DNA from: Cylindrospermopsis raciborskii Cr2010
GTDB lineage: Bacteria > Cyanobacteriota > Cyanobacteriia > Cyanobacteriales > Nostocaceae
Direction: 5' to 3'
DNA length: 32,000 nt
Assembly: GCF_003367075.2 (NCBI RefSeq)
Contig: NZ_CP065936.1
Span: 1,440,001-1,472,000 of the forward strand
Program-made: the position numbers and the translations under genes
The notes under the pieces: model-generated
Told to the model about the DNA's origin: nothing
Seen by the model: the letters and a program-made list of their open reading frames with translations, nothing else
Databases searched by the model: none
In this document: in pieces, positions 4,686 to 30,430 of the stretch
Position numbering within the stretch: position 1 is the first letter of the stretch
Layout: each line of letters starts with the position of its first letter

Positions 4686-7600
4686 CTAAACAAAACTGAA
4701 GTTACTGACAGTAAGTGTGCTAGTATTTACTCCAATTAAGGTAGCTATAGTGTTGCCATTGATGATAATGTCGTTATTGGTTAAGGTTAGATCCTTAAAG
4801 CCAAAGCTCTGGACTTGACCGCTAATACCCAAAACATCAGTACCAATCTGAAAATCCACAATGGTATTGGCAAGGTTTTTGTTGTCAACTTTGGGGATAT
4901 CACCGGTAGCGATCCAAAACTGGTCTGCACCAGCACCACCGGAAATTAAATTGCCCCCACCTTCGCTAACAAAGAATTTATCATCTCCATCACCACCTAA
5001 AGCGCGACCATTCACACCTAGGTGAAAAACGTCATTACCAGATCCACCGGAAAGGCGATAGTCCTTGGCATCTGTAGCGTAGATTTCATCATCCCCACTA
5101 CCACCAAAAATGCGATCGCCATTACCTGCGTATATAACGTCTTTGCCACTACCTGTGTGAATAGTATTTTCGCCCCTGGGAAAACCTTCCAAGGAGGTAT
5201 TGAGAGTAGTGTCTACCTCATCATTTCCAGAACCGGTAAAGATTAGGTCTTTAATACCATCAGTTTGGGAAGGAATTACCACAACATCACGATCCGTGGT
5301 GCCAAAGACCAACTGGGATGCTTGGGGAACATTATTGGCATTTGGTTCCACCTCAAACTGACTGACAATTTGGGGTTGCAGATTGATAATAGCATTAGGA
5401 TCAGCAACTAACTCAGCTTCAGTATAGGGTTTGATTCCATAAGTAGTGACCGTTAGCTTTTGAGTAGTTGGGTTGATGTTAAATTCCGTCCAACCGTAGG
5501 TGTGAGTCGCAATATAGTCTCCTTGTAGTAACTTAGAGTTAATTAACCCATCAACTTGAGAAAGGTTGTTGTTTAAACCTATTGGATCGTAGCCAAAAGG
5601 TTGTAATCCATTGTTGATAGCTTGTTTAATGAAATCATCCTTGTCATTTACAACACTATCCCCATCACTAATTGTAGGTAAGGAATCATAAAATGCCTTT
5701 TGCTGTGGTGTTAGGAATAAACCAGCCACTGTTGGTCCAAAGGGAGCATCGTAAGCTACGGAACCAGTAATAATTTCCCAGGTATTGGTAGGAATTTGAG
5801 CTTGACCGGGTGCGGTTTGATAGGTGAGATTATTTACTATTGTACCGTGGAAATCAGCAGTAACAAAAACAACGTTTTTAATTTTGTTGTCATCGATAAA
5901 CTTGAGAAGTTCCGTTCTTTCAGCTGCATATCCTTCGTAGCGGTCACTTGCTGCTGCTACACCCAGGTTTTGGATTGGTCCTGACAACATGATAAACTTC
6001 CAGGTTATACCGCTGTTGCTTGCGCGCAGGAGGTCTTTTTTGAGATCTTCCACCTGTGGTCTTCCCAACAGGGTGCGATTGGGATTAAAAGACTGGGCCA
6101 GGAAATTGCCAACCTGAGTTGAATCACCTGGGTTGGTAACGGGGGGTAGTTCCGTATCTCGGAAAGAGCGAGCATCTAATACAAAAGTAGCTGCGTCACT
6201 ACCATAGGTGTTATAGCGATAGAGTTTCCTTTCTCCATCAATTCTACTATCACCGGTTTGACTATAAAACTGATCGCTAATGGGGTTATACTCTTGGAAA
6301 GCCTGCAACCCATTTTCATAGAAGGGATTGTCATTGGTTAAACCCGTGCCAGAAGGAGACATACCAGCAAAGTCATTGTAAACCTCGTGGTCATCTATAG
6401 TAGTTAAAATGGAGGTAGATGCTCTTAGGTCTCCCCAGGTATTTTGTCCATAGCGTAGTCCGTATACTTCAGAGTGTTTAGCTCGATAGTCTTCTAGGGT
6501 AGTAGCTTGAGGTATTTCCACTCCCTTGCTATCCTTGAGTCCTGGTGAGGGAACGTCAGCATAAATGGTATCTCCCAGTTGGACAAAGAATTTCAAATTA
6601 GCTGTATCCGCATTATTAATGGCTGGATAGGGCGCTAATTCACCACGCCAGTCACCCGAGACTCCAAATTTCAACCCAGCTCTAGTTGTGGAGGTAGCTG
6701 CTGTGCTAAACTTACCAGTAGCAGTTCCACCACTTACATCGCTGACCCGATAGTAGTAATTGGTTCCCGGTGTAAGTCCATCTACTAATACTTTAACTGG
6801 TTGAGTAGTATTGGTTACGTTGACTGTCTTTTTGCCAACTATGGTACTAAAGTCTGGAGTTGTACCATATTCAAAGGTCACCTGTCCGGTGAAAAGACTG
6901 CGGGTCCAGAGAATGGTAGAAGTTTGGGTGGTGTCACCGCTAGCAACTCCGTTAACTAGGGACTGGGCTATGGGAGTGCGGGGATTGAAAGTGGTAGTAT
7001 CAATTTTTAAAGATGTGGGGAAACCATTGGCAATATTTTCCCAGGGGACCAATTTAAAATTGCTGTTGATGTTCTCACCATCAGTAATTTTAGCGGGTTC
7101 GTTATTGCCATCTTGAGTGACAAATAAACCCATGGGGAAATTAGCGCCTAGGGGTAGATTAATCACATCTGCACCATCAGACTCCTGCACGCTATCAATT
7201 GCGCCATTACTGCCAACAGCAAATCTCCCCAGAAAATCATTGCTACCTTCACGGGTGTAAACGGCAAAGCTGTTATCACCTTGGCTAGATGCTAATAGGT
7301 AACCGGTGCCATTTTTGCCATAGTAAATTGTGAGACCCTCCGCATCATCTGTAAGGTTTTGACCACCTTCAAATTTAACCTTATCTACCAGTTTACCAAC
7401 GTTGCTACCATTGGGTTCTGCATCGAATTTCCAAATTCCCACATCCTCCTGACCAATGTAAACAAAGCCCATTTCCTGGTCTGCTACCATACCCTCGGTT
7501 TGAGCAGAACGGGTAGAATCACTAGGAGCAGGAATGGTAAATTCTCTAACTCGTTCATAGCCTACTTTGCCATTACCTTTGTCAATCAGTTTAAATTGAG

Positions 7601-10469
7601 CCACATCTCCCGTTTGACGACGGGAAGCAAACACGTAGTAATCTTTAGTTGCCAGGCTACGGTAAATAGTTATTCCGTAGGCGCTGCGGGATGATGATGA
7701 GTAAGGAGCAACAAAGGGTAAGCTTTGAAACAGAGTAGTGACACTACTATCAGTGATGTTCTCTAAATAGTTCCCACCTGTTCCCTGGGGATTAATTTTG
7801 AAAATCACCAACTTGTCGTTTTGGCGATCGCTTGCTACCGCAATATCTATCTTTTCTCCACCCAGGGTGAAGCCATATTGGAGATCAATATTATTGTAGC
7901 GAATTGACCCAGGATTAATTTCCTGTAATAATTTGCCCGTTAGGTCATAGACTCGCAGTCCAGCATTTTTCACCGCTGTTAAAATGATACTCTTACTGGG
8001 GTCTTGACTATTGACGTAAATGGCTGGGTCATCCGCATCTGCTCTTTGAGATGTTGGTAAAGTAGGATCATCAAATAAATCCGGGCGGGTTTCTACCGTG
8101 GGAATTACAGTAGGTAATAGTTCCCCACCCAGAGTGAGGATCTGGGTAAATTGGGTCGCACCAAAATTATTGTCACTGACCAATACTATGGACTGACGAC
8201 CATCAGCTAATCGGGGGCCAAAGCTCAATCCTTCTATATTGTCCGTTCCCGTAGGATGGTTCCCATCACTATTGGGTAAATTTAGGGTATCAAGGTTGAG
8301 GACCAGGCGTTTTTGTACAGGTTGAATCGCTGCTAGTTGATCACTAGTTATTCCACTCAAGGAATTAATTGTAGTGATATCCGTTGCTCCTTGAAGAGTC
8401 ACTTCGTAGATCTTGATGGTGTTACCTTGTCCCACCGCAAAAGACCTTTCCAAGGCTAATAGAGTACCACGATTGTCAATCGCTAGTAAGTCCACTAACC
8501 CACTATCTGCTGCTGTACCACCTGTAGGTGCTTTGGCGATCGCATCTGCCAAGTATAAATATTCTTTTTCCGGTTGTCCAGTAACTAAATTATACTGAAT
8601 AACACGAGAACGACTAGGAGCGGTTAAGGACGTGCGATCGCCATCTTGTAGTAAGGCATTTTCCGTGGCGGTATATAGAGTTTTTTGGTCAGGGGAAATA
8701 GTCAAACTTTCAAAAGCCAAGTTATTGCGCACCCCGGATGTTTGAGTATCACCAGTATTAACGACCCCGTCACCATTAGTATCTTGAACCACAGGTAAGA
8801 ACTTGCTGGGAACAAGCAAGGTTCTAATTTCCTTTCCTGTAGTCAAATCAAACTCTTTAATAAAGGGGTTGGTGACACGACCTGCTGAGGGATTAGCCTC
8901 ACCTTCAGAGGAAATAAACACAGTTCCATTGCTAGTGAGAGCAATACCCTCTGGGCCAAGACTCAAGGCTGGGAATAAATTACCACTGGTATCCGTAATC
9001 GGAGTAACATTAGTAAAGGTGATGTCACTAGTAGCAGGATTCAGGGTAAAAGTATAAAATCGAGCTGGACCAAATTGGGAACGGTCATCAGAGATAGCAT
9101 AAAAGAGACCTTTAGCCACATCATAGACAACACCGGATAAACCACCCATGGGGGTGTCTGTGCCATTAACTTTTCCTGGAGTACCGGGGGGGATAAAACC
9201 AGTGACAAAGGTTTTTTGACCCACAAACTTTAGATTGGGAACTGTCTTTCCTCCCGGGGTTGGGTCAACTTGAATATCAGCCAGTACTAGGCGATGATCG
9301 GAGCTGGGAAAACCACCAGGTAAGCTAGAATTAAAGGTTCCTACCAGTGCAAAGTTAGGGTCAGTATTAACCGGCCAAAAAACTGCTGAATTGGCAATTT
9401 TGAGATCCGTAGAAGGTAAAACATAATCTGAACGTAAGTTACCGGGGGTTGTATCAGCAAAATCAGATGTATCAAAAGCTGGGTTGCTCCGGTGATTGAC
9501 ATTTGCTCCTCCCTGTAAGGTTGACTGTTGCACAGCGCCTAAACTGGTAGGGATAAAATTGGTATTAATATTAGGATTTTGGAGCAATTGCAAAATGGCC
9601 TGATTGTAGCTGTCTCCATCCTGGGGATCGGCATTTTCATCGCCCATAATGACAAAACTAGACCCAGATGCTAAACTACCTTTTTTACCCGTGTCATCAT
9701 AGATATAGTCCCCCTTACCAGGAGTTATATAGTCACTCCAAAATCTAATTTCATCGTAATTACGTTTGCCATTACGGTCTTCTGTACCGTCAAATACGGG
9801 TGGAGTGGGGTGACTAACTAGAACGTGAATGGTTTGATTACCAATCTTGATGGGTACATCCCAATGACTTTTGGAAGAAAGACGTAGTACGGCAATTTCT
9901 TCGGGTGAATAAAAGCTACCAAGATTTTCATTAACTGTGGTAGTAGCAGGATTATCTACCGTGGGGTCATTAGTTAATAAATTGCCTGGCATATCCTTCC
10001 ATAAGAAGTTTTGGAAGGTGCGAACATTTGCCGTGTCAATTTCATACTTAGACAGTAATAACATGCCAAACTGCCCAGGGAAATTACCAAATCCAAAGGA
10101 ATCATCACCATATCCAGCAGCACCAGGTGTTGTGACCACTGCACCATTGTTATTTAAGTCAAATCCAGAAGCAATACCAGTATTAGAAGGAGCAATATAG
10201 AAGTACGGGTAGGTGATGGGTGTTGCTCCATTTTGACTCACACCAAGATAATTCTGTTGCAAAAGTTGAATAGCTTGGGTGGGATTGGTTTGAACGTAAT
10301 CAAATTCATTAATTAACAGTACATCTGGGTTAGCGCGTTGAATTATTTCCGCTACTGATTTGGCCTGGGCATTAGTAGTGGTAGATAAATCTGTAACTAA
10401 CTGATTGCTAGTATTACGGTTAAGGGAAGCATTGAACTGGGAAAAACGGACTGTTTTAATAGTTGCCAT
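4686..10469 (-). CDS. giant secreted multi-domain phosphatase: EEP domain + phytase-like esterase + beta-propeller 3-phytase + PhoD-like phosphodiesterase/alkaline phosphatase + RTX Ca-binding repeats
   Basis: Uninterrupted 1,927-aa ORF. The EEP domain shows VLLINEFDY and SSDHRLVLADI. The beta-propeller phytase shows DDPAIYVN and RYNNIDL. The PhoD domain shows GVASGDTTQTSTILWTR, QLGDTIYAD and DDHEVYNDF. The C-terminal nonapeptide repeats include GSGNDEV, GSGKDVIYAGNGDRIFGGSGDDEIYA, GGSGNDVF, GGDGDDKF and GGAGADQF. There is no N-terminal signal peptide, which fits type I secretion. Confidence 0.9.
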   Translation of the reverse strand: MATIKTVRFSQFNASLNRNTSNQLVTDLSTTTNAQAKSVAEIIQRANPDVLLINEFDYVQTNPTQAIQLLQQNYLGVSQNGATPITYPYFYIAPSNTGIASGFDLNNNGAVVTTPGAAGYGDDSFGFGNFPGQFGMLLLSKYEIDTANVRTFQNFLWKDMPGNLLTNDPTVDNPATTTVNENLGSFYSPEEIAVLRLSSKSHWDVPIKIGNQTIHVLVSHPTPPVFDGTEDRNGKRNYDEIRFWSDYITPGKGDYIYDDTGKKGSLASGSSFVIMGDENADPQDGDSYNQAILQLLQNPNINTNFIPTSLGAVQQSTLQGGANVNHRSNPAFDTSDFADTTPGNLRSDYVLPSTDLKIANSAVFWPVNTDPNFALVGTFNSSLPGGFPSSDHRLVLADIQVDPTPGGKTVPNLKFVGQKTFVTGFIPPGTPGKVNGTDTPMGGLSGVVYDVAKGLFYAISDDRSQFGPARFYTFTLNPATSDITFTNVTPITDTSGNLFPALSLGPEGIALTSNGTVFISSEGEANPSAGRVTNPFIKEFDLTTGKEIRTLLVPSKFLPVVQDTNGDGVVNTGDTQTSGVRNNLAFESLTISPDQKTLYTATENALLQDGDRTSLTAPSRSRVIQYNLVTGQPEKEYLYLADAIAKAPTGGTAADSGLVDLLAIDNRGTLLALERSFAVGQGNTIKIYEVTLQGATDITTINSLSGITSDQLAAIQPVQKRLVLNLDTLNLPNSDGNHPTGTDNIEGLSFGPRLADGRQSIVLVSDNNFGATQFTQILTLGGELLPTVIPTVETRPDLFDDPTLPTSQRADADDPAIYVNSQDPSKSIILTAVKNAGLRVYDLTGKLLQEINPGSIRYNNIDLQYGFTLGGEKIDIAVASDRQNDKLVIFKINPQGTGGNYLENITDSSVTTLFQSLPFVAPYSSSSRSAYGITIYRSLATKDYYVFASRRQTGDVAQFKLIDKGNGKVGYERVREFTIPAPSDSTRSAQTEGMVADQEMGFVYIGQEDVGIWKFDAEPNGSNVGKLVDKVKFEGGQNLTDDAEGLTIYYGKNGTGYLLASSQGDNSFAVYTREGSNDFLGRFAVGSNGAIDSVQESDGADVINLPLGANFPMGLFVTQDGNNEPAKITDGENINSNFKLVPWENIANGFPTSLKIDTTTFNPRTPIAQSLVNGVASGDTTQTSTILWTRSLFTGQVTFEYGTTPDFSTIVGKKTVNVTNTTQPVKVLVDGLTPGTNYYYRVSDVSGGTATGKFSTAATSTTRAGLKFGVSGDWRGELAPYPAINNADTANLKFFVQLGDTIYADVPSPGLKDSKGVEIPQATTLEDYRAKHSEVYGLRYGQNTWGDLRASTSILTTIDDHEVYNDFAGMSPSGTGLTNDNPFYENGLQAFQEYNPISDQFYSQTGDSRIDGERKLYRYNTYGSDAATFVLDARSFRDTELPPVTNPGDSTQVGNFLAQSFNPNRTLLGRPQVEDLKKDLLRASNSGITWKFIMLSGPIQNLGVAAASDRYEGYAAERTELLKFIDDNKIKNVVFVTADFHGTIVNNLTYQTAPGQAQIPTNTWEIITGSVAYDAPFGPTVAGLFLTPQQKAFYDSLPTISDGDSVVNDKDDFIKQAINNGLQPFGYDPIGLNNNLSQVDGLINSKLLQGDYIATHTYGWTEFNINPTTQKLTVTTYGIKPYTEAELVADPNAIINLQPQIVSQFEVEPNANNVPQASQLVFGTTDRDVVVIPSQTDGIKDLIFTGSGNDEVDTTLNTSLEGFPRGENTIHTGSGKDVIYAGNGDRIFGGSGDDEIYATDAKDYRLSGGSGNDVFHLGVNGRALGGDGDDKFFVSEGGGNLISGGAGADQFWIATGDIPKVDNKNLANTIVDFQIGTDVLGISGQVQSFGFKDLTLTNNDIIINGNTIATLIGVNTSTLTVSNFSFV

Positions 10470-10563
10470 TGTTCACCTTTGGGGTTGGGGTTTATGTTGA
10501 GCTAGAAGCAGTTGAAGTTATCAATTAAGTTAATTGCTACATAGCAATACCTCTAATCACACA

Positions 10564-10625
10564 ACGTTAACTCCAAGACGTTAAGATTTAGTTATCTAAA
10601 GATAAGGAAAAGTTCAAGGTTAAAG
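10564..10625 (-). promoter_or_regulatory. candidate Pho-box-like array upstream of the giant phosphatase gene
   Basis: On the gene strand, ~95-155 nt upstream of the ATG, the sequence reads TTTAACCT-tgaa-CTTTTCCT-tat-CTTTAGAT...CTTAACGT...GTTAACGT. These are several imperfect copies of the cyanobacterial Pho-box unit (CTTAACCT). Some have ~11-nt phasing, but the spacing is irregular. Confidence 0.3.
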
Positions 10626-10777
10626 AATTTTTGACCCGAAATTTTTGGGTATGGATCGTGAATGCTAACTATTTTTGTTAAAATAGTTAAACACACTCAT
10701 AGGCCTTGTTTACCAAAAGTGTATATAATGGACAATGACTTTTAAAAACTATACCTGACATACAAATAAGATTAACT

Positions 10778-11596
10778 ATGAATACAAACCAGTTAAAATT
10801 TATGCTAAGACTACTGGCATCCCCAGATCATAATGCTGGTTGGACTTCTTCTGCGCTTGAATATTTTAAAAAAGAAAAAAGTAAAATTTGTCAAGAATTA
10901 GAAAAGAGAGAATATGTAGATTACTCCAGAGAAATTGTTTCAGCGCAGATCTTACCTGCTGGTAAAGCTGCATTACAGATTGAATCTTCCCAACTACCCA
11001 TAGCGCCTGAAGAAATAAAGGTGTTACAAAATATAGCTAAGAGCAATCAGAAAATAGAGGTTAGTAAAATTAAGATTAAATCTTTAAAGTCCGATGAAAA
11101 AGACGGAATTTTAAAAATCCTGAGTGAGCGGGGTTTAATAAAGGTAGAACAGAAGATAAAAAGGACGAAAGCACAAGTTTGGCTCACAGATAGAGGACTT
11201 GAGTTTTTACGTGATGAGTACATACCACAAAAAGATTCTCATCCTGTAATCAGTTTAGACATGCTGGGTGCGTACATACAATTTTTGCGTAAGAATGCCC
11301 AGGGAAAAAAATCAGTAATTCCTAGGGAAATAACTGACGAAGAAATTTTACAAACTATTGAAAATTTAGATCGAGAACTGGGTACAGAAAATTACCTACC
11401 CATCTTCCATGTGCGAGAGAAATTACAACCGCCCCTATCAAGAGATGATCTAGATCAGGCATTATATAGATTGCAAAAGATGAATAAAATTGATTTTGAT
11501 CCTTTACAGGAAGTAACCAATTATACTGGAATTCAGATTGATGCGGGAATCCCCCAGAATATTGGTGGTCCATTGTTTTTTATTATAGTTAATTAA
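10778..11596 (+). CDS. hypothetical protein with several winged-helix-like DNA-binding modules
   Basis: 272-aa ORF with a perfect TATAAT at 10724-10729 upstream. Three segments look like wHTH units: ELEKREYVDYS..ILPAGKAAL, ILKILSERGLIKVEQ..VWLTDRGLEFL and ALYRLQKMNKIDFDP. I recognise no catalytic motif. It lies 43 nt upstream of the NTPase gene on the same strand. Confidence 0.6.
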   Translation: MNTNQLKFMLRLLASPDHNAGWTSSALEYFKKEKSKICQELEKREYVDYSREIVSAQILPAGKAALQIESSQLPIAPEEIKVLQNIAKSNQKIEVSKIKIKSLKSDEKDGILKILSERGLIKVEQKIKRTKAQVWLTDRGLEFLRDEYIPQKDSHPVISLDMLGAYIQFLRKNAQGKKSVIPREITDEEILQTIENLDRELGTENYLPIFHVREKLQPPLSRDDLDQALYRLQKMNKIDFDPLQEVTNYTGIQIDAGIPQNIGGPLFFIIVN

Positions 11597-11639
11597 GAGC
11601 CAATAATTACTCACTTTCAGTTGTTTACCCTTTACATCC

Positions 11640-13760
11640 ATGACACACATTAATGACATTATCAAACGCCAAACTAACCCCTTTGATTCAATCCAAATAA
11701 AGCCCACTGATTTTTGGGTAGAAGAGCAAGATTCCACAGTGATGGTAGACTCAATTCACCAAGAAGCAATAAAAGAAATTGAAAGTCTACTCGAGCTAGT
11801 AGCCAAAGATCATCGCAGTCGGACAGTTTTGATAAGGGGTAGTTCTGGATCTGGTAAAAGTTATCTCCTGGGTAGACTGAAACGTAAGTTGAATTCCAAA
11901 GCCTTTTTTGCCTATGTTTTTTGTAATTGGAGCAGTAGTGCTGAAATATGGCGACATATTCTCCGTCGTACCGTTGATAGTTTACTGCAAATTCCTGAAG
12001 GAGAACAAGAATCGCAGCTAATGTTGTGGCTAAAAAGTCTCAGTGCATTTACTAAAAGTGGTGTCAAACAGAAAATATTCAATACCAATTTTTGGCAACT
12101 CCTAAGAGGCGATCGCCCAAAATTTATTAAACACCTCAAAAGTACTTATAAGAAAGGAATCTATCATCCTGATATTTTTTTTGGTGTGCTCCATGATCTG
12201 ACCAATCCAGATTTATATGATTTGGCATGTGAATGGCTAAGGGGAGATGACCTAAGCGAAGAATCCATGAAACTAATTAAAGTTAAAAGCTGCATTGATA
12301 CAGAGGAAGCTGCCAAAAATATTTTAGCCAATTTTGGTAAAATTTCTACCCAAACCCAACCGATAGTTTTGTGTTTTGATAACCTTGATACCATGCCTCA
12401 GCAACCCGGAGGTACTTTGGAAATTCAGCCTTTTATGAATGTTAATACAACCATTCATGGTGATAATTTGAAGAATTTCCTAGTAATTATCAGTGTTATT
12501 TCTGATACTTGGGAGCGGAATCGTGACAGTATTCTTCCAGCTGATAAAGCGGGAATTGAAAAACAAATCAGGTTACAAAATATTAGTATAGAACAAGCGG
12601 AAGCACTGTGGATTTGTCAGCTCAAACCACTACACAGATTAGCCTATCCCATACCAGAATCTCCTCTTTTTCCTCTCAGTCGAGAAATATTAGATAGAAA
12701 CTACCCTGGTGGTAAAAGCACACCTAGAAGTACATTAGTTTTGGGTCGGAAGGAGTATCAGGAATATAAGCTCTCCCTCAATGGGAATTATAGTGCAGCG
12801 CAGGAGGAATTACCACCCCAGAACACGGTTGTGGATGACGGTTCCCAAAACCAAAAAGTGGATGTTAAGGGTCAAAATGCTACATTTTCAGCTAACCAGG
12901 ATATAAACCAATCGGAATTCGAATTATTATGGCAACAGGAGTATAAAAAAAGCCAGCAGAAATATAGCAAAATATCTTTATTGTCATCATCTGATTTGAC
13001 TCAAATGCTCATATATGCTATATGTGCCATGGATATTCCTGAAATTCAACCTAAACTAATTAGTGGCAAGTATACCACCCATTCCTTTAGTTATCTCCAT
13101 CCTCAAAATAACCAAAAAACTGGCGTTGTCTGGACAGAAGAACATAATATGAATAGCTTTTATCATATTATGAGTGCTTGTCAAACAGCTATTCAAAAAA
13201 AGGCCTGTGAAACACTTTACTTAATTCGTAGTGGAAATGTGGGTAACCCTGAATCATCTGGTAACCAAATTTATCGACAGATATTCGTAAATACACACAA
13301 CCTTCATATTAGGTCTAGTTTGACTGGAATTCATTTTTTAGCAACTTATCAAAGTTTGGTGAATTCTGCTAAGTCCCAGGATTTACTCATTGGTGGTAAA
13401 ACAGTTGATTTACGAAAGTTAGAAGATTTTGTGCAAAGGTCAAAAGTTTTACACGGGTGTGACTTATTACAGGCTTTGGGGATTGTTAGTAAAACCTCAA
13501 ATCCACACACCAGTGAAAACCGTGAGGAAAATTTAGAAGTTGTCAAAGGTTTCTTGTTTAATTTAGTTAAGATTAACCAATGTATTGCAGTAAAAACTGC
13601 AATTGATAATACACTTAAGGAGTTTCAGTTTCCTGAGACTCAAACAGCTAGTGTTCAAAATTTAATTGATTTATTGTATCAGGAAAAGAAAGTGAAAATT
13701 TTGGGATCCACATCCAAACCGGAAGAGCAAATAATTCTGTGGTGCCCTGATTTTTCTTAA
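11640..13760 (+). CDS. large P-loop NTPase (ORC/Cdc6- or STAND-like ATPase) of unknown function
   Basis: 706-aa ORF with Walker A GSSGSGKSY (nt ~11836-11862) and Walker B-like IVLCFDNLD (nt ~12363-12389). The N-terminal NPF..lead-in, helical middle and C-terminal wHTH-like end (SVQNLIDLLYQEKKVKIL) recall AAA+/STAND architectures. I recognise no effector domain. Confidence 0.75.
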   Translation: MTHINDIIKRQTNPFDSIQIKPTDFWVEEQDSTVMVDSIHQEAIKEIESLLELVAKDHRSRTVLIRGSSGSGKSYLLGRLKRKLNSKAFFAYVFCNWSSSAEIWRHILRRTVDSLLQIPEGEQESQLMLWLKSLSAFTKSGVKQKIFNTNFWQLLRGDRPKFIKHLKSTYKKGIYHPDIFFGVLHDLTNPDLYDLACEWLRGDDLSEESMKLIKVKSCIDTEEAAKNILANFGKISTQTQPIVLCFDNLDTMPQQPGGTLEIQPFMNVNTTIHGDNLKNFLVIISVISDTWERNRDSILPADKAGIEKQIRLQNISIEQAEALWICQLKPLHRLAYPIPESPLFPLSREILDRNYPGGKSTPRSTLVLGRKEYQEYKLSLNGNYSAAQEELPPQNTVVDDGSQNQKVDVKGQNATFSANQDINQSEFELLWQQEYKKSQQKYSKISLLSSSDLTQMLIYAICAMDIPEIQPKLISGKYTTHSFSYLHPQNNQKTGVVWTEEHNMNSFYHIMSACQTAIQKKACETLYLIRSGNVGNPESSGNQIYRQIFVNTHNLHIRSSLTGIHFLATYQSLVNSAKSQDLLIGGKTVDLRKLEDFVQRSKVLHGCDLLQALGIVSKTSNPHTSENREENLEVVKGFLFNLVKINQCIAVKTAIDNTLKEFQFPETQTASVQNLIDLLYQEKKVKILGSTSKPEEQIILWCPDFS

Positions 13761-13785
13761 TCAAACTCAAATCTCCCTTAGTTAA

Positions 13786-13986
13786 GCTAGGGGTGAATCT
13801 TATTTAGGTGCAATTGATGATTTAGTCCGCCTTGAAAGAGAAGATCGCATTGGTCGTTTGTTAGAGTTAAACCCTGTACAACCAATCGCACTAACTGTAG
13901 GTTCTTTATCTTATGGACGTGTTAGTATTACAGAGCCTAGTGATGTACGTCGTCAGGCGATCGCAAAATTACGAGGATACCCTTGA
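13786..13986 (+). pseudogene. start-less open frame, probable C-terminal remnant of a disrupted gene
   Basis: 66 sense codons from the stop at 13783-13785 to the TGA at 13984-13986: ARGESYLGAIDDLVRLEREDRIGRLLELNPVQPIALTVGSLSYGRVSITEPSDVRRQAIAKLRGYP*. There is no in-frame ATG or GTG. It sits between the NTPase gene and the transposon-like end. Confidence 0.3.
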
Positions 13987-14090
13987 AAACTATGTTGTTC
14001 TATCAGAAGATAATATCGTCTCAAACTAAAGGTTGATGAGATTTATTTAAGAGAAAGAAGCCGAGCAAGGGTTTAAATACTAAATGTTAA

Positions 14091-14168
14091 GTCTATGCGA
14101 CATCAATTTGAGAAAAACGACATTTAATTTGGCAATATGGACAAATAATCTGGCAAGCGACATGTACA
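14091..14168 (-). mobile_element. Tn7-like (CAST-type) transposon terminal end, apparently solo in this window
   Basis: Read on the minus strand from the tRNA side: TGTACATGTCGCTTGCCA GATTATTTGTCCATATTGCC AAATTAAATGTCGTTTTTCT CAAATTGATGTCGCATAGAC. That is a terminal TGTACA plus four AATT(A/G)nnTGTC(G/C)-type repeats. The repeat cores sit at 14158-14162, 14139-14143, 14118-14122 and 14098-14102, spaced 19-21 bp apart. The end lies 2 bp from the tRNA-Ala 3' terminus. Confidence 0.5.
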
Positions 14169-14170
14169 AA

Positions 14171-14243
14171 TGGAGAATAGGAGACTCGAACCCCTGACCT
14201 CTGCGGTGCGATCGCAGCACTCTACCAACTGAGCTAATTCCCC
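14171..14243 (-). tRNA. tRNA-Ala (anticodon CGC)
   Basis: The reverse complement GGGGAATTAGCTCAGTTGGTAGAGTGCTGCGATCGCACCGCAGAGGTCAGGGGTTCGAGTCTCCTATTCTCCA folds as a 73-nt cloverleaf. The anticodon loop is AUCGCAC, giving anticodon CGC. It has the G3:U70 alanine identity pair and a GTTCGAGTC T-arm, and CCA is not encoded. A HIP1 site (GCGATCGC) spans the anticodon. Confidence 0.9.
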
Positions 14244-14248
14244 TAGGT

Positions 14249-14995
14249 TTACCCTATTGTAACACGCTCTCCATTTTTCCAATCTTTCTGCTCAAAAGTT
14301 TCCCAAATTCGTTCCCACTCTAAATCCCTTACATGGTCTACTGTCCAGTTAGCTTGACGCTGGAGGATGTGAAAGGGGTAAGTATTAGCAATTCCCACAA
14401 CTTTCATTCTAGCGCGTTTCGCCGCTTCTATGCCAGCTAAGGTATCTTCCAAGGCTAAACAGTCTTCGGGTTGTAAACTTAAATCAACATTTATATCAGA
14501 ATATACTTGATTAAGTCTATCCACGGCTAATAAATACCCTTCCGGTTGAGGTTTACTAGTAGCGATATCATCACCTGCAATGATCACCTGAAAATATTCT
14601 CTTATATTAGCACGTTCTAAGACCAACTCTATTTCTCGAACCAGGGCACCACTAACTAGACCCACGGGCAAATTTTGAGACCGGGCCTGTATAATTAAAT
14701 CCTCTATTCCAGAATAGAGCGGTAACTGTTCCAGACTCTCTAGTTCCTTAATATATTTGTTTGCTTTATTTCGCAGCAGGTTGGTTAAATGGTCTTGACT
14801 GACCACCCTTCCACGACGCTTTAATAACTCCTCAAAACAAGCGCGATCGCTCCTTCCTAAACATCTCAAACGTTCATCTGGCTTTTGGGGTTGTAAATTT
14901 TCTTCCACCAGAATCTCATCTATCAGTTTTAAATGTATTGATTCGTCTTTAATAATCACTCCATTAAAATCGAACAGGACTGCTTTTAAAGGCAT
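14249..14995 (-). CDS. HAD-superfamily hydrolase (beta-phosphoglucomutase/phosphatase-like)
   Basis: 248-aa ORF with HAD motif I-like AVLFDFNGVI at the N-terminus. It also has VGLVSGA (motif II-like) and LALEDTLAGIEAAKRAGM (motif III/IV context). It ends 5 nt upstream of the tRNA on the same strand. Confidence 0.8.
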   Translation of the reverse strand: MPLKAVLFDFNGVIIKDESIHLKLIDEILVEENLQPQKPDERLRCLGRSDRACFEELLKRRGRVVSQDHLTNLLRNKANKYIKELESLEQLPLYSGIEDLIIQARSQNLPVGLVSGALVREIELVLERANIREYFQVIIAGDDIATSKPQPEGYLLAVDRLNQVYSDINVDLSLQPEDCLALEDTLAGIEAAKRARMKVVGIANTYPFHILQRQANWTVDHVRDLEWERIWETFEQKDWKNGERVTIG

Positions 14996-15143
14996 ATAAA
15001 AATCTAAGTAAACATAACTAACATTCCCATTATTACAGGAATGTGTACACTAATAGGGAATACGGAACGGGTTGAGGATACAAAATTTCCCACCCAAAAC
15101 ATAAAATAGTAGGTTGTGGTGTGAAACTTAACATAGGAGTGGA

Positions 15144-15974
15144 GTGATGGATTTACGTCGGGATGCTTTACAAATTCTCAAGGAAACTAGTAGAACCTTT
15201 TATATTCCAATTAGCATTATGCCATCAGGACTACAAGAAGCTGTGGCATCAGCATACTTGTGTATGCGTGCTATTGACGAGATTGAGGACCATCCAACTC
15301 TGGAAAATCATACTAAGGGAATTTTACTACAAAGCATTAGCCAAACTCTACAAGCAGGAGTGGATGGTTTTGCAGTGGATGCTTTTTCCATGGGATTTAA
15401 GGGTTATGAAGATTCCTTACCTGAGGTCAGTGTCAGGATTAGGGAATGGGCAATTTTAGCACCAGAAAGCATTGCACCTCGCATTTGGGATGCAACAGCA
15501 GCTATGGCCGATAGAATGGCTTACTGGTCACAAATAAATTGGCAAATTAAGAATGAATACGACCTGGACCGTTACACCTTTGGCGTTGCAGGTGCAGTAG
15601 GTTTGTTACTCTCAGATTTATGGTCATGGTATGATGGAACCACGACTAACCGCATGGAAGCGATCGCCTTTGGTCGAGGGTTACAAGCAGTAAATATCCT
15701 ACGTAATAATAGTGAAGATTTAACCCGTGGGGTAAATTTTTTCCCCGAGGGTTGGAATCACCAGGATCTTCAACAGTATGCTCGTCGTCATCTAGCTTTA
15801 GCGGATAGTTATACTAATAGTCTTCCTCCTGGACCCGCTCTACAATTCTGTCAAATTCCCCTGGCCTTGGCCCATGGTACTCTGGATGCACTAGCTAATG
15901 GTAAGGAAAAACTCAGTCGTCATGATGTCTATGCTCTAATCGAAAATCTCATTAATGTCAATGCAGTAGTATAA
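15144..15974 (+). CDS. squalene/phytoene synthase family protein (short, divergent member)
   Basis: 276-aa ORF with SRTFYIPI. The first acidic motif is YLCMRAIDEIED and the second acidic region is NILRNNSEDLTRG. This is the trans-isoprenyl diphosphate synthase head-to-head pattern. Confidence 0.8.
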   Translation: MMDLRRDALQILKETSRTFYIPISIMPSGLQEAVASAYLCMRAIDEIEDHPTLENHTKGILLQSISQTLQAGVDGFAVDAFSMGFKGYEDSLPEVSVRIREWAILAPESIAPRIWDATAAMADRMAYWSQINWQIKNEYDLDRYTFGVAGAVGLLLSDLWSWYDGTTTNRMEAIAFGRGLQAVNILRNNSEDLTRGVNFFPEGWNHQDLQQYARRHLALADSYTNSLPPGPALQFCQIPLALAHGTLDALANGKEKLSRHDVYALIENLINVNAVV

Positions 15975-15991
15975 ACAACCCCATCCCCCGG

Positions 15992-17968
15992 GTGGGGATG
16001 GATAAGAAAATACCAGTCCCAAATTATTCATCCATGAACACAAATCTTTTAGGAAAAACTCTGAGCGATCGCTATGTTATTATACGCCAAGTAGGACAGG
16101 GGGGATTTGGACGTACCTACCTAGCTGAGGATATGAACCGATTTCGGGAGTATTGCGTTTTAAAAGAATTTTCTCCTGTTGTCCAAACTCCAGAAGCTGT
16201 TAAAAAAGCCCAAGAACTATTTGAAAGGGAGGCCACTGTACTTTATCAGTTAGAACACCCTCAAATACCCCGGTTTCGGGAATTATTGCCCATTAACCTC
16301 GAGGGAAAGGAATATCTATTTTTAGTCCAGGATTACGTCCAAGGAATAACCTATAGCTCTTTACTCAATACTCAACAACAACAGGGGCTAAAATTTTCTG
16401 AAACTGCAGTTCGTCAACTCTTAGAACAAATTCTGCCAGTTTTGCAATACATTCACAGCATGGGGGTGATTCATCGAGACATTTCCCCTGATAACTTAAT
16501 TCTAAGAAATTCCGATCAGTTGCCAGTACTAATTGATTTCGGAGGAGTAAAACAAGTTGCTGCAAATTTAGCTTCTCAGTATTACCAATCCGGTCAAAAT
16601 ACTCCTAGTAGTGGCACCTTATTAGGCAAAGTGGGATTCGCACCACCAGAACAAATGCAAACAGGTTTAGTTTACCCTCATAGCGACCTATATGCTTTAG
16701 CTGTAACTGTTTTAGTATTACTTACAGGTAAAATGCCCCAGGAAATAATTGATACTCAAACCTTACAGTGGCAATGGCGACGAGAAGTTAGACTCAGTCC
16801 ACTCCTAGGTCAAGTTTTAGACCGCATGCTCTCCTATAAACCAGGCGATCGCTATCAAACAGCCAATCAGGTTTTAGATGCTCTTAACTTCCAAAGGGTG
16901 AGTTCTCCTATGTCTGGGTCGCTCACTAGTCAAACAATGGCAATTTCTCAACCATCTACACCCATGACCTCCACACCTGAAACCACGGGTGTTTGGACCA
17001 CAACTAACATAATGATGGTTACTATGGCTATATTCACCAGTGCAGGACTATTATGGTGGGGGTTTAATAATCGTTATCAGCCAACTAACACCCCCAGTGT
17101 CGCATCTCCCACACCCACCACTACACCCTCTGTAGATCCCACCGCTAATTACTCCCCAGAAGAAAAACAACGTAAGCAAAAACTGCGCGATCGCCTGGAA
17201 GAACTAAACATCAATTCTAGGTTCTTTAGCAGTTTGGTGAATCAGGTATTTTGGGAAAAAAACCCCAGTCTAACAGGAAGGACTCTTAGCAGCGAACCGG
17301 AGGATGAAAGTTTACGGAAAGAATGGGATAAAACTGCCATGGAAGTTGTGGAAAAACTTGCTATCCTCAGCGAAAACTCACGTAGACAGCTAGGAACTTA
17401 TACATCATCCACTCGACAAAAATGGCAAATGGTAATTAACAGCAAAAACGTTAGTAGTAATGCCCTATATGACCTAGCTGATGCTGCTCTTTTACGTATT
17501 TTTCCTGAGCAAAAGGGTAAGAATTTTATTTCCAAACCTCTCGGTCAAGTTTGGCAGGGATTTGCCAACGATAGACTCAATGACATCATGGAAAACACGG
17601 CCTGGGAAAAAATAGTATTGGATCCTGGTAATACAAGTAAAATGGCTAGGGGAACTCTAGATCCAGGAGGAGGCAAAGTTTTCATTGCCAAATTGGTTAA
17701 AGACCAAAATATGCAGGTGCAACTGGATGCAAACACGGAGGTTTTACTGTCAGTTTATTCTCCATCTGGTAAGACAAAATTTTTGCAAGATTCAAAATCG
17801 CGTCAACTCTCCCAAATATTACCAGAAAGTGGATTTTATGAATTTGTTGTAGTTTCCACAGCATCAAATCCTGAAGACTACGAATTCTCTCTTACCATAG
17901 AAAATCCTCCCGCACCAGAACCCATAGAAACCCCCACCCCGGAAACCACTCCAGAACCTGTTCAATAA
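15992..17968 (+). CDS. Ser/Thr protein kinase with central TM segment and C-terminal extracytoplasmic domain
   Basis: 658-aa ORF with the Hanks kinase motifs GQGGFGRTY, VLKEF, HRDISPDNLIL, DFGGVK and APPE. A hydrophobic segment (IMMVTMAIFTSAGLLWW) follows, then a Pro/Thr-rich C-terminal region. The start is uncertain: GTG 15992, ATG 15998 or ATG 16034. Confidence 0.9.
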   Translation: MGMDKKIPVPNYSSMNTNLLGKTLSDRYVIIRQVGQGGFGRTYLAEDMNRFREYCVLKEFSPVVQTPEAVKKAQELFEREATVLYQLEHPQIPRFRELLPINLEGKEYLFLVQDYVQGITYSSLLNTQQQQGLKFSETAVRQLLEQILPVLQYIHSMGVIHRDISPDNLILRNSDQLPVLIDFGGVKQVAANLASQYYQSGQNTPSSGTLLGKVGFAPPEQMQTGLVYPHSDLYALAVTVLVLLTGKMPQEIIDTQTLQWQWRREVRLSPLLGQVLDRMLSYKPGDRYQTANQVLDALNFQRVSSPMSGSLTSQTMAISQPSTPMTSTPETTGVWTTTNIMMVTMAIFTSAGLLWWGFNNRYQPTNTPSVASPTPTTTPSVDPTANYSPEEKQRKQKLRDRLEELNINSRFFSSLVNQVFWEKNPSLTGRTLSSEPEDESLRKEWDKTAMEVVEKLAILSENSRRQLGTYTSSTRQKWQMVINSKNVSSNALYDLADAALLRIFPEQKGKNFISKPLGQVWQGFANDRLNDIMENTAWEKIVLDPGNTSKMARGTLDPGGGKVFIAKLVKDQNMQVQLDANTEVLLSVYSPSGKTKFLQDSKSRQLSQILPESGFYEFVVVSTASNPEDYEFSLTIENPPAPEPIETPTPETTPEPVQ

Positions 17969-18000
17969 AAATATCAACATCAACAAATGGTTTCATAATT

Positions 18001-18153
18001 ATGAACAAAATCGTGGGAAAGGATGAAAGCAGAACTGATAAAAACAACCTACCCGGTTGTCAAGAGGAAAGGATTCTTTGTCCCCATTGTAAACGTACTG
18101 CTACTAATGGAATTAAGTGTAAAGGTATTTGTGTAGCTGACAGTGACTACTGA
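18001..18153 (+). CDS. small Cys-rich (zinc-ribbon-like) protein, 50 aa
   Basis: ATG-to-TGA frame that is absent from the ORF track because it is under 60 aa: MNKIVGKDESRTDKNNLPGCQEERILCPHCKRTATNGIKCKGICVADSDY. The Cys spacing is C-x6-CxxC-x11-C-x3-C. It lies on the same strand immediately after the kinase gene. Confidence 0.35.
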   Translation: MNKIVGKDESRTDKNNLPGCQEERILCPHCKRTATNGIKCKGICVADSDY

Positions 18154-18168
18154 TAATCACAACTAATA

Positions 18169-19290
18169 TTACACTCCGTCCACGGTCAGCCCTAAATAGT
18201 TGCGAACAATTTTCAAGATTCGCTCTGCTGCATGACCATCTCCAAAAGGGTTAATAGCATTTGCCATTGATAAATATGCTTGCTTATCACTTAACAACTC
18301 ACTAGCAGCAGTTACAATTCTATCTGTTTGTGTTCCTACTAATTTAGCCGTACCCGCTGTTACCGCTTCTGGTCTTTCTGTAGTATCTCTAAGCACTAAC
18401 ACGGGTTTACCAAGACTAGGAGCTTCTTCTTGCAGTCCACCAGAGTCTGTTAACAATAAGTAAGAGCGCCCTATTGCTCCTACTAACTCCGCATAATCTA
18501 ATGGTTCTGTTAAAAAAATCCGGGGGTGTTTACCTAGTATTTGTTGTAATGGCTCTCTAACAGTAGGATTTTTATGTAGTGGTAATAATAAAGCTGTGTC
18601 GGAAAACCGATCTAAAATTTCTAGGAAACCTTGAGCAATTGCTTGCAGTGGTTCCCCCCAATTTTCTCGTCGGTGAACCGTGGCTAAAATAGTTCGATAT
18701 TCTCCCCACTTTAAACCGGGTATATCACAAGCTGGGTTGGCTTTTGCTACGTTCAACAACGCATCAATTACGGTGTTACCAGTCAGGTGGATTTCCCCTA
18801 AAACACCGGAATTCTGTAAATTGGTTACCGCTAAGGAGGTAGGTGCAAAATGTAATTGACTAATTTGGGAAATTAATCTTCTGTTAGCTTCTTCCGGATA
18901 GGGATTAAACAGATCGTCAGTTCTCAACCCCGCTTCCAAATGACCTACCGGAATTTGCTGGTAAAAAGCTCCTAAAGCTGCTGCAAAGGCAGTTGTTGTA
19001 TCTCCCTGAACAATCACTAAGTCTATATTTAGCTTTTTATATAAAGTCTCTAAACCTTGCAAACTCCTACATGTAATATCATTAAGAGACTGTTTAGGCT
19101 GCATAATCTCTAGATCCCAATCCGCTTTCAGGTTAAACAGCACCATTACTTGTGCGACCATTTCCTTATGCTGTCCTGTAAGAATCACTTCTACTTCTAA
19201 GTCCGCAACAGTTTTAAATATCTGAATTACTGGTGCTAGTTTAATTGCTTCAGGACGAGTACCTAAAACAATGCCAATTTTTTTAGTCAT
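18169..19290 (-). CDS. wecB: UDP-N-acetylglucosamine 2-epimerase (non-hydrolysing)
   Basis: 373-aa ORF with N-terminal IVLGTRPEAIKLAPV, plus QGDTTT, HLEAGLRT, VHRREN and LTDSGGLQEE. These are the canonical WecB/MnaA motifs. Confidence 0.9.
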   Translation of the reverse strand: MTKKIGIVLGTRPEAIKLAPVIQIFKTVADLEVEVILTGQHKEMVAQVMVLFNLKADWDLEIMQPKQSLNDITCRSLQGLETLYKKLNIDLVIVQGDTTTAFAAALGAFYQQIPVGHLEAGLRTDDLFNPYPEEANRRLISQISQLHFAPTSLAVTNLQNSGVLGEIHLTGNTVIDALLNVAKANPACDIPGLKWGEYRTILATVHRRENWGEPLQAIAQGFLEILDRFSDTALLLPLHKNPTVREPLQQILGKHPRIFLTEPLDYAELVGAIGRSYLLLTDSGGLQEEAPSLGKPVLVLRDTTERPEAVTAGTAKLVGTQTDRIVTAASELLSDKQAYLSMANAINPFGDGHAAERILKIVRNYLGLTVDGV

Positions 19291-19392
19291 TACTTATCGA
19301 ATTATTGATCATGAAATAGTACAGCAGCCATAATTCTATCCTAAATCATTCCCATTCGTTAAAACAAAATTTTTTCCCCTCTCTTAAACACG

Positions 19393-19413
19393 AAAAAACC
19401 CGGCTTAACCGGG
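19393..19413 (-). terminator. rho-independent terminator candidate for the 123-aa membrane-protein gene
   Basis: GC-rich hairpin CCCGG-cttaa-CCGGG (19399-19413). On the minus strand it is followed immediately by TTTTTT (19393-19398). Confidence 0.55.
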
Positions 19414-19571
19414 CAGATGGACTGTTTTTTTAAATTTGACCTATCAAGTTGTAGCTCTAACTAAAACTCTATAAACAGAGTTTATGGCTGAAAATGAGAG
19501 TCGGGTAGATGATCGCCTACCCTCCCTACAGGTGGCTACCGCTATTAATTGACATGTCAAACTTATATTAA

Positions 19572-19943
19572 TCATTTGATCTCACAAGTTAAAGGACAAG
19601 AAGCATAAACGGTAGTTTGCACCCTTTCCGCATCACCATATAGCCAACTTAACCACTTAACTTCTTTGGGATGAACACTCTTAGCAGTCAAGACACCTGC
19701 CACGATTAAAACTGACATAACATTGAAAATTACTAAAGTACCTGCTACGAGTAAAACAGCGCTCGCAGGCATAACAGATTGCAAAACAATAGAGAGTAAG
19801 CAACCTACTGTAGCCATAACTACAACTAGTGGAAAACCTACTACTAACAAGCACACTGCTAATGTGAAAGTCCAAATTAAAAAGCTTTTCATCATTAACA
19901 AGGAGTACATCTTCCCTTGATTAGAGCTTTGAGCCACAACCAT
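19572..19943 (-). CDS. small integral membrane protein, unknown function
   Basis: 123-aa ORF with three clear hydrophobic helices (FLIWTFTLAVCLLVVGFPLVVVMATVGCLL, AVLLVAGTLVIFNVMSVLIVAGVL). A terminator lies downstream. The start could be an internal Met. Confidence 0.5.
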   Translation of the reverse strand: MVVAQSSNQGKMYSLLMMKSFLIWTFTLAVCLLVVGFPLVVVMATVGCLLSIVLQSVMPASAVLLVAGTLVIFNVMSVLIVAGVLTAKSVHPKEVKWLSWLYGDAERVQTTVYASCPLTCEIK

Positions 19944-20387
19944 GATCTTTCCTCCTAAAATTACACAGCAAGGTTTAAAGTTGAATTTCAGTTTTGCTCA
20001 ATTCTTGAGATCACTGTTTTCATTCAGTGAAATTCAGTATATAGAACCTGAAGAAAAAGATGAGCATTTCTTTATTAATCTTTACACTTAATTTTTCGTA
20101 ATCATGGATTTGATGCCCAAACCGGGTTTGGTTCACTACTCCTAATTCCCCATATATCCCTGGATATATAACTTTGGGAATAGCAATGCCCATGGATCTT
20201 ACCCAAAATCTGTCTTCTAACTTGCTTAACATTTCTTAATAAAAGTCTCCTTATCTCTCATAATTGAAATGGAAAATAAAAGGCTAGTAGTGACCTATAA
20301 TTTAGGTAACGCGGTTCCACAAAAATAAATGCTCTGCATTGACAGTGACCAGTGTTAATAACAAACAACAGGTATTAACTAAATTTA

Positions 20388-21164
20388 ATGAGTATTTATA
20401 ACTTAGGTACAAATATAGATAAACCATCTTTACCTCAAGTGTTTAAAGGGATTGCCTTGTTTACACCGGGGGGAGATTTAATTTACTGTATTGATCCGAG
20501 TAAACAGAAGCGATGGCATTTGCATTTGTGTGGGGTCTTGCAGGAAATACTGAATCTATCAGAACCTCCCCATTTTTTAGTTCCTTGTTATACAGCTACA
20601 ATTGATCATTGGTTAAATCCACGTACACAAAAAATACAGACATTTGCGGAGGCTTATCCTGCGGTAATGAGCTATCAGCCAGTATTGGGAGCAATTTTTG
20701 GGACAGGAAATGAAGTGTGGCAAAGGTCACCTTGGCGAGAGGATGTATGTGATCCCATGGTAATAGAGAGTTACCGTTCAACCTTTCCCCAATTATGGGA
20801 GGATCACGATTTGATCGTGCGTTTAGATAGTATGTCCATGCCTTATTCACAGAAGCATGTCAATCAAAAACAGATAATACAGAATCATGAAGTTTATGTT
20901 TTACGTTTATTTGTTGCTGGTCATAACATATCCACTGAAAGAATTTTAGAGAAACTACATGAATTATTAGAAGAGTACTTGGGGGTTCCTTACACTCTCA
21001 AGGTAATTGATGTTTTAACACATCCGGAGCAAGCGGAGATAGATCAGGTTTCAGCCACACCCACATTAGTTAAGATTTGGCCCCATCCTGTTCGTCGGAT
21101 AGTTGGTAATTTGGATAATGTGGAAAAGGTGTTACAGACCCTGGGTAAAAAAGATAATTTTTAG
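20388..21164 (+). CDS. KaiB-like protein with ~160-aa N-terminal extension
   Basis: 258-aa ORF. The C-terminal ~95 aa (YVLRLFVAGHNISTERILEKLHELLEEYLGVPYTLKVIDVLTHPEQAEIDQVSATPTLVKIWPHPVRRIVGNL) is a clear KaiB/thioredoxin-like fold match. The N-terminal part has no motif I recognise. No kaiA or kaiC is nearby. Confidence 0.8.
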   Translation: MSIYNLGTNIDKPSLPQVFKGIALFTPGGDLIYCIDPSKQKRWHLHLCGVLQEILNLSEPPHFLVPCYTATIDHWLNPRTQKIQTFAEAYPAVMSYQPVLGAIFGTGNEVWQRSPWREDVCDPMVIESYRSTFPQLWEDHDLIVRLDSMSMPYSQKHVNQKQIIQNHEVYVLRLFVAGHNISTERILEKLHELLEEYLGVPYTLKVIDVLTHPEQAEIDQVSATPTLVKIWPHPVRRIVGNLDNVEKVLQTLGKKDNF

Positions 21165-21242
21165 GAGGGGGAAACCAATCCTTGGCAAATAAGTATTATA
21201 ATGTATAAGTGATATAAACATCTTAACCTATTTAAAACTACA

Positions 21243-22031: not shown

Positions 22032-22037
22032 GAGGAT

Positions 22038-23669: not shown

Positions 23670-23759
23670 TGGATTTTTAACAAATTTTTCCACTGGATAA
23701 AAGACTGGAATTTTTTTAAAAACCCCCTTTTTAAAACCTGACCAGTTTCATGATAAGTA

Positions 23760-23828
23760 GGTGGGTGGAATTAAAGAACGTAGGTTGAGTTTAATACGAA
23801 ACCCAACGCCCCCATGGGTTACCCTACC
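23760..23828. repeat. dispersed hairpin repeat (MITE-like), related to the three copies downstream of groEL
   Basis: ggtgggtggaattaaagaacgtaggttgagtttaatacgaaacccaacgcccccatgggttac aligns with gtgggtaagtggaattaaatataagatgaacgtaggttgggttgaagtatgaaacccaacacccccatgggttac at ~29947-30027 and in the two following copies. The core hairpin is GTTGGGTT..AACCCAAC. Confidence 0.7.
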
Positions 23829-23946
23829 ACTAACCCATCCCACAAATAATTGTCCCTCCCTACTTACTAGCATGATAATATAGCTCAAGTATCCTTATTT
23901 TTAATCTGACCATCAACAACCCACCGCTCTCCAGGAGGGATGAAAT

Positions 23947-28241: not shown

Positions 28242-30421
<2,180 letters not shown>

Positions 30422-30430
<9 letters not shown>

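Follow-up and report, generated by a model that had tools for sequence, protein, structure and literature searches.

[quoted passage not shown] We use "left end" in the sense of the Peters laboratory, for the end that is distal to tnsB and lies beside cas12k and the CRISPR array. In ShCAST (Tn7747), AcCAST (Tn7746), and the cas12k element of Anabaena cylindrica PCC 7122, the left end begins with TGTACA, carries direct repeats of ~20 bp of the CANATTANNTGTC type, and faces a tRNA gene. Hsieh and Peters described the truncated repeat-spacer of these elements, the att-crRNA, and found that 130 of 282 cas12k genes stand without tnsBCQ. [quoted passage not shown] Defense systems are named in one source as typical cargo of Tn7-like elements (PMC8649781).

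Here, we examined a stretch of 32,000 nucleotides from the bloom-forming cyanobacterium Cylindrospermopsis (Raphidiopsis) raciborskii, referred to below as the window, and report that positions 14077-14168 of its minus strand are very probably a left end of the type V-K CAST family, preserved as a fossil. The window shares with the V-K CASTs above the TGTACA terminus, the direct repeats, and a left end that faces the tRNA gene; it differs from them in keeping just 92 bp of the end, in its mosaic repeat array, and in lacking an att-crRNA, cas12k, tnsB, tnsC, and a right end. Because the window holds no CAST gene or RNA, no second end, and no verifiable duplication, membership in the family rests on the sequence of the end, its position, and its relatives. 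The element is of a known kind, and the relic adds a new case to a mechanism already known.

Results

An array of direct repeats begins 2 bp from tRNA-Ala(CGC)

The features at the site, all on the minus strand, are as follows.

14171-14243, minus: tRNA-Ala(CGC), the putative chromosomal attachment site (ARAGORN; Rfam RF00005, 61 bits)
14169-14173, minus: candidate copy of a 5-bp target-site duplication, CCATT in the orientation of the tRNA and AATGG on the plus strand, assigned by position alone
14077-14168, minus: very probable solo left-end relic of a type V-K CAST, 92 bp (sequence read, nhmmer profile, and alignment to related ends)
14156-14136, minus: predicted TnsB-site-like repeat 1, TTGCCAGATTATTTGTCCATA
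14135-14115, minus: predicted TnsB-site-like repeat 2, TTGCCAAATTAAATGTCGTTT
14114-14093, minus: predicted TnsB-site-like repeat 3, TTCTCAAATTGATGTCGCATAG

When the minus strand was read from the tRNA, the discriminator A at 14171 was followed by TT (14170-14169), TGTACA (14168-14163), and then TGTCGC; together with the ARAGORN and Rfam calls of the tRNA, this agrees with the original prediction, which had put TGTACA two bases past the discriminator. The TGTC cores start at 14162, 14143, 14122, and 14102, and the measured spacings of 19, 21, and 20 bp likewise agree with the four copies, 19-21 bp apart, that had been predicted. In our reading, the array opens with a terminal TGTACATGTCGC, to which three repeats of ~21 bp in direct orientation are joined without gaps between them, so that 14077-14168 displays the terminal 5'-TGT and the several direct repeats of ~20 bp that mark V-K left ends. 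A core-motif cluster scan of the 32 kb found CANATTANNTGTC clustered at a single place, which is this array, and the array is far from chance. It stops at 14077 because a gene remnant reading in its direction has its stop codon at the adjoining positions 14074-14076.

Ends of the same architecture flank Cas12k and tRNA genes

We scanned one genome per species from 185,579 bacterial and archaeal species with the architecture pattern TGTACA-N4-12-CANATTANNTGTC-N7-8-CANATT, which contains no tRNA sequence. At least 120 stretches matched; among the 80 matches listed, the named records were all cyanobacterial, and a few records were titled merely "uncultured bacterium". The 3' end of a same-strand tRNA lay 0-89 bp outside TGTACA in 85 of 121 ends, with tRNA-Ala(CGC) as the neighbor in 14 of the 85. 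These 14 loci belong to Nostoc/Anabaena-like taxa, and 11 of them keep the pair formed by a HAD-hydrolase gene and tRNA-Ala(CGC), each with a CAST end downstream.

The protein found most often inside the ends was Cas12k (PDB 7n3o, E = 8e-262), transcribed towards the end from ~1.2 kb in, and the second most common was a TnsA-less TnsB of the ShCAST type (7svw, E = 1e-207), which reads inward from ~350 bp. Cas12k was located inside 32 of the tRNA-adjacent ends and tnsB beside none of them, while the tnsB-adjacent ends (n = 8) were all without a tRNA. Because tRNA-adjacent ends have Cas12k inside them and never tnsB, the end in the window is to be classed as a left end.

A profile hidden Markov model was built from the 121 independent ends, none of them from R. 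raciborskii, and nhmmer matched it to the 32-kb window once, at 14095-14156 on the minus strand with an E value of 5e-9 (envelope 14075-14168). By similarity, the array thus groups with the ends of elements that encode Cas12k and ShCAST-type TnsB, in line with the earlier suggestion that TGTACA plus repeats of ~20 bp is how the ends of cyanobacterial Tn7-like elements, V-K CASTs included, look.

In several left ends (L059, L113, L118, and L126, as well as L069, L043, and L044), a second TGTACA or a fragment of it lies 8-20 bp outside the terminal one. The doubling could reflect tandem or abortive insertions, or it could be a structural feature of such ends.

The end lies at the expected distance from a putative Cas12k target in the tRNA gene

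One further feature lies within the tRNA gene.

14206-14225, minus: putative Cas12k target inside the tRNA, consisting of the PAM GTA (14225-14223) and the 17-nt protospacer GAGTGCTGCGATCGCAC (14222-14206)

Thirteen relatives at tRNA-Ala carry a truncated repeat-spacer, GGGTTGAAAG followed directly by GAGTGCTGCGATCG(A/T)AC, which sits 130-190 bp inside the left end on the strand that reads towards the end. Its spacer matches tRNA positions 22-38, with GTA immediately before, and the identical spacer/protospacer pair is tabulated for the cas12k element of A. cylindrica PCC 7122 (Table S1, bioRxiv 10.1101/2021.02.06.429022). That element uses the same protospacer and the same PAM, and its PAM-to-end distance falls in the range of the family. 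In the window tRNA, protospacer and PAM are identical to those of the relatives that bear an att-crRNA. Counted from the first base of the protospacer, TGTACA starts at a distance of 54 in the window, which is the modal value among the att-crRNA relatives (range 52-69). Strecker et al. in 2019 reportedly observed insertion 60-66 bp from the PAM for ShCAST and 49-56 bp for AcCAST, and the window geometry is in range because these distances bracket such spacing. The left end thus faces the tRNA gene with the spacing from a GTN PAM and protospacer that characterizes V-K left ends, and the view that the element had homed to a tRNA gene gains from the fact that both this geometry and the att site match those of intact elements and of the published table.

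We also weighed whether the end could derive from the TnsAB-fusion, TnsD-using family that targets tRNA genes, including the type I-B2 and I-D CASTs, rather than from a Cas12k element. That family is common in cyanobacteria, its left end is the proximal one downstream of the tRNA, and it has no transposase genes at the proximal end, all of which would suit this locus. However, the window end starts with TGTACA, not with the TAC/GTA of McCAST ends (PMC9881144), it lies 2 bp from the tRNA instead of about 29 bp, and its repeats are all direct where the fusion elements have bidirectional sites. Moreover, the pattern-matched ends flank Cas12k and a TnsB without TnsA, and the closest ends (L139, L136, and L131) carry att-crRNAs of the Cas12k type. 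An origin from the TnsAB-fusion family is therefore very improbable.

No CAST gene, guide RNA, or mate end is present in the window

When cas12k, tnsB, and tnsC were searched by tblastn in the 32-kb window, no match was obtained at E ≤ 10, as the original prediction had stated; the same Cas12k, TnsB, and TnsC searches of loci L001-L010 returned nothing. Pfam found no TniQ or rve domain in the 20 largest ORFs other than the 1927-aa gene. The att-crRNA, which is kept in L139, L136, L131, L011, and others, had no match with up to 2 mismatches within 1.6 kb inside the window's end, and the tRNA was the sole Rfam match in the window. The mate end was sought in the 32 kb by inverted-repeat searches, by searches for the repeats and the terminus with mismatches, by clusters of the core motif, and with nhmmer profiles of left and right ends, and none of these recovered it; nor does the window contain an AATGG+TGT junction. 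By these searches, the window lacks the att-crRNA, cas12k, tnsB, tnsC, and a second end with its duplication, and it shows no tracrRNA or CRISPR array among its Rfam matches and tandem repeats and no tniQ among the large ORFs scanned. Loss of this kind is frequent in the family: cas12k was missing in 22 of the 40 tRNA-adjacent ends for which at least 3.5 kb of inside flank could be inspected.

A 416-aa ORF (26204-27454, minus) was considered as a relic of Cas12k and rejected: it encodes an IS605-type TnpB (Pfam OrfB_IS605 and Cas12f1-like TNB), has no tblastn match, and lies on the outer side of the tRNA. This TnpB gene, 12 kb from the relic on the chromosomal side of the tRNA, is unrelated to Cas12k at the tblastn level.

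The window holds a single tandem array, an unrelated 184-bp repeat at 29890-30427 (2.9 copies, 97% identical), which directly follows groEL and has no Rfam match. Its unit contains two palindromes that can form hairpins, TGGGGGAAG..CTTCCCCCA and GGTTGGGTT..AACCCAAC, and a partial, related copy lies 6 kb upstream at 23755-23831.

Strains and related genera show graded stages of decay

Proteins identical to those flanking the relic occur in many R. raciborskii assemblies. Of the 20 R. raciborskii loci fetched, 18 have the identical relic sequence, and two carry it cut from the inside at ~62 bp by a deletion that enters the third repeat. A lineage of 93% identity retains the left end together with the att-crRNA. 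Further stages were seen in a metagenome contig, L139, which is 98.6% identical to window positions 14099-22930 and has the same CCATT/TGTACA junction. It keeps five repeats, the att-crRNA, debris of CRISPR repeats, and fragments of cas12k, and the contig stops within the cas12k debris. A metagenome scan for this subtype of end gave three matches, L139 among them; searches for an interior of the L139 type, made with the L139 cas12k fragment and by looking up contexts, returned other taxa or other sites.

In Raphidiopsis curvata NIES-932 (L158, 10826-11143), the same tRNA-Ala is followed by a gene-free stub of ~320 bp in which a degenerate left end is paired with an inverted right end. The right end of the stub matches the right-end profile with an E value of 5e-11, CCAT is present on both sides of the stub, and outside it lies a module of a 223-aa gene, a VWA gene, and a 123-aa gene, followed by housekeeping genes. 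Cylindrospermopsis curvispora has a left end of ~45 bp, a DUF3800 gene, and inner repeats of the right end, beyond which come a 5'-nucleotidase gene, the same VWA module, a STAND gene, an RcaD-like gene, and the 1927-aa phosphatase gene. In both species, the right-end relics are located within about 0.3-1.7 kb of the left end.

Sphaerospermopsis has the HAD/tRNA-Ala pair and no CAST end downstream of it, and because the pair occurs there without such a sequence, the 92 bp are not a native trailer of the tRNA. This bears on the reading in which the array is a native trailer, a terminator, a regulatory sequence, or a chance repeat unrelated to transposition. An AT-rich sequence directly after a tRNA would fit that reading. 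The sequence is, however, absent after the orthologous Sphaerospermopsis tRNA, an inverted copy closes the ~320-bp stub of R. curvata, and the profile match (E = 5e-9) joins the window to ends that lie next to many different tRNAs and whose named records, among the matches listed, are all cyanobacterial. The native-trailer reading is effectively refuted; the original prediction had itself singled out a comparison of this sort, namely, whether the same ~80 bp would recur beside tRNA-Ala in genomes that lack any insertion, and in Sphaerospermopsis it did not.

At the orthologous HAD/tRNA-Ala site of Sphaerospermopsis sp. LEGE 08334 (L133, 10819-20729), we observed Uma2 nucleases, a type I restriction-modification system, and a PIN toxin. 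Since this defense island stands there without a CAST end, the flank of tRNA-Ala appears to be a general hotspot for defense genes. The site thus carries another island and is not cleanly empty, for which reason the far boundary of the element was deduced from R. curvata and C. curvispora. Elsewhere, another decaying V-K CAST was seen in L162 (8159-10516; Logan SRR22405866), with a MerR gene and a cas12k split into ORFs of 392 and 171 aa; its cargo is a type I restriction-modification system.

These data also bear on whether the end still functions, either as the distal end of an element that is very large or rearranged and has its core genes outside the window, or as part of a non-autonomous element mobilized by a CAST elsewhere in the genome. 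An intact TGTACA and three to four repeats survive, the sequence is identical in most of the R. raciborskii loci fetched, and the literature reports right ends displaced elsewhere in the chromosome. Against this, both a mate end and CAST genes are missing from the 14 kb inward and from the 32 kb as a whole, and the DNA inward of the end consists of housekeeping genes (phosphatase, Na/H exchanger, amidase, and racemase). The end is cut at 92 bp and has no att-crRNA, which intact ends carry 130-190 bp in, deletions reach the repeats in some strains, and the right-end relics of C. curvispora and R. curvata lie close to the left end. Furthermore, none of the 282 cas12k elements in the published table (Table S1, bioRxiv 10.1101/2021.02.06.429022) is entered under Cylindrospermopsis or Raphidiopsis, and our literature search found no link between Cas12k and raciborskii. 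A functional end is thus improbable. The original prediction had allowed for a relic or for the distal end of an element; the relic is the option that is supported, given an end cut at 92 bp and 32 kb without mate end or CAST gene, and the distal end is the improbable one.

The defense genes inside the end have decayed, and the adjoining cassette is probably not cargo

Two features lie inward of the relic.

13801-14076, plus: debris of ietS, an S8 peptidase gene (blastn against L002); this strain has lost ietA and most of ietS
10771-13772, plus: cassette of an RcaD-like gene (272 aa, 10778-11596) and a STAND/AAA_16 NTPase gene (706 aa, 11640-13760), assigned by Pfam and the names of homologs

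In most R. raciborskii strains, ietS directly follows the end on its inner side and is itself followed by ietA, as in L002 (10920-14454). PADLOC identified the adjacent S8 peptidase IetS and AAA ATPase IetA, a defense pair against plasmids and phages, in L002 and similar loci with E values of 4.5e-124 and 8.4e-91, respectively, and the NCBIfam IteA/IteS scores of the pair in these strains are below the equivalog cut-offs. Unlike those loci, the window retains ~276 bp of ietS debris and no IetAS pair: 14015-14076 is the 3' end of ietS, with its stop codon at 14074-14076, and 13885-13984 and 13801-13884 are internal pieces, as aligned by blastn with L002. Across strains, we found full ietAS, an ietS shortened to 491 or about 230 aa, a 224-aa ietA without ietS, and debris only, as in the window. 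IetA and IetS have been lost repeatedly among R. raciborskii strains (the window, L003, L009, L142, L144, and L146). The species also retains a 156-bp piece of a DUF3800 gene between ietA and the STAND gene.

The original prediction had the end mark the adjacent cassette as transposon cargo, and this was not supported. The cassette is 90% identical to positions 9970-12981 of R. curvata L152, at a different locus, and the matching block has sharp edges, 7 bp ahead of the ATG on one side and 12 bp past the stop codon on the other. In C. curvispora, the cassette is distal to the VWA module, and in R. curvata, the VWA module lies outside the right end. The comparison across the genus places ietAS and DUF3800 inside what would be the old element and the VWA module and the STAND/RcaD-like cassette outside it. 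The cassette adjoins the relic here only because this strain has lost ietAS and the DUF3800 piece. We therefore rejected the RcaD-like/STAND cassette as unlikely cargo; it stands at another locus in R. curvata and outside the position of the right end, and it is probably not part of the CAST. The CAST-derived DNA of the window would then amount to about 13801-14168.

The cassette appears to be mobile from its distribution over loci; a paralogous cassette pair of 69% identity lies at a third locus in other C. raciborskii strains (L155-L157). The 1927-aa phosphatase/phytase-like gene (window 4686-10469) is interrupted in some strains, either by an IS630-like DDE_3 transposase gene (L143, 5642-6589) or by a split into two ORFs (L142, 4651-9692).

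The repeat array is a mosaic of two subtypes of end

Alignment of the relic with related ends revealed that its outer part, from TGTACA to TTGCCAGATTATTTGTCC, matches the TTGCCA/TGTCC subtype found in L139, L136, and Nostoc parmelioides. Its inner part (AATGTCGTTTTTCTCAAATTGATGTCGCA) is almost identical to the TTCGCA/TTCTCA subtype of L070 and L125, which resembles the relics of R. curvata and C. curvispora; positions 14093-14168 were also compared with L131 and L161. Because the outer and inner parts match different subtypes, no single element that we saw would give the relic by simple truncation.

One tentative explanation, which we consider possible and rather less likely than its being wrong, is that one att site was occupied by CASTs in series and that recombination between tandem left ends excised the newer element. 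In such a series, an older CAST with TTCGCA repeats, whose relics would be those of R. curvata and C. curvispora, would have occupied the site first, and a second CAST, of the TTGCCA/TGTCC subtype as in L139, would have landed on the tRNA side of the older left end. The newer element would then have been lost through recombination at the direct TnsB sites that both left ends carried, leaving a chimeric solo end together with the defense cargo (IetAS) of the older one.

Discussion

The preferred reading of the locus, that of a decayed V-K CAST, can be set out as a series of steps patterned on the known elements. The element's short att-crRNA would have guided Cas12k to GAGTGCTGCGATCGCAC (PAM GTA) in tRNA-Ala(CGC), and TniQ and TnsC would have positioned TnsB so that joining took place ~54 bp downstream, 2 bp past the 3' end of the tRNA, the left end being turned towards the target. 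The terminal TGTACA and the repeats of ~20 bp would have been the sites recognized by TnsB. Later decay would have removed the att-crRNA, the CRISPR array, the tracrRNA, cas12k, tniQ, tnsC, tnsB, the right end, and the IetAS pair, and inert DNA would have been left. The RNA-guided insertion, the binding of TnsB to its predicted sites, and the order of the deletions are what we infer from the family to which the end belongs, from its geometry relative to the tRNA, and from the less decayed relatives.

The relic has the same process of decay and the same class of att site as the degraded Cas12k elements described by Hsieh and Peters. Those elements were found through a surviving cas12k, whereas the relic has lost cas12k too, so gene-based surveys would miss it. 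Solo ends of V-K CASTs that contain no genes are recognizable from about 90 bp, and surveys based on cas12k or tnsB undercount past CAST activity because such ends carry neither gene.

If the tentative series of occupancies were true, recombination of one left end with another would offer CASTs a general way to seed defense islands at tRNA genes and to abandon them later. More speculatively, the predicted TnsB sites that are retained may still give the att site target immunity.

For the organisms themselves, tRNA-Ala(CGC) in Cylindrospermopsis/Raphidiopsis emerges as an att site that has been used repeatedly, and the island beside it (IetAS, DUF3800, the VWA module, and the STAND cassette) changes fast and varies between strains and species. 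In the annotation of these genomes, the relic accounts for the odd repeat array after the tRNA and for the strain-variable genes next to it.
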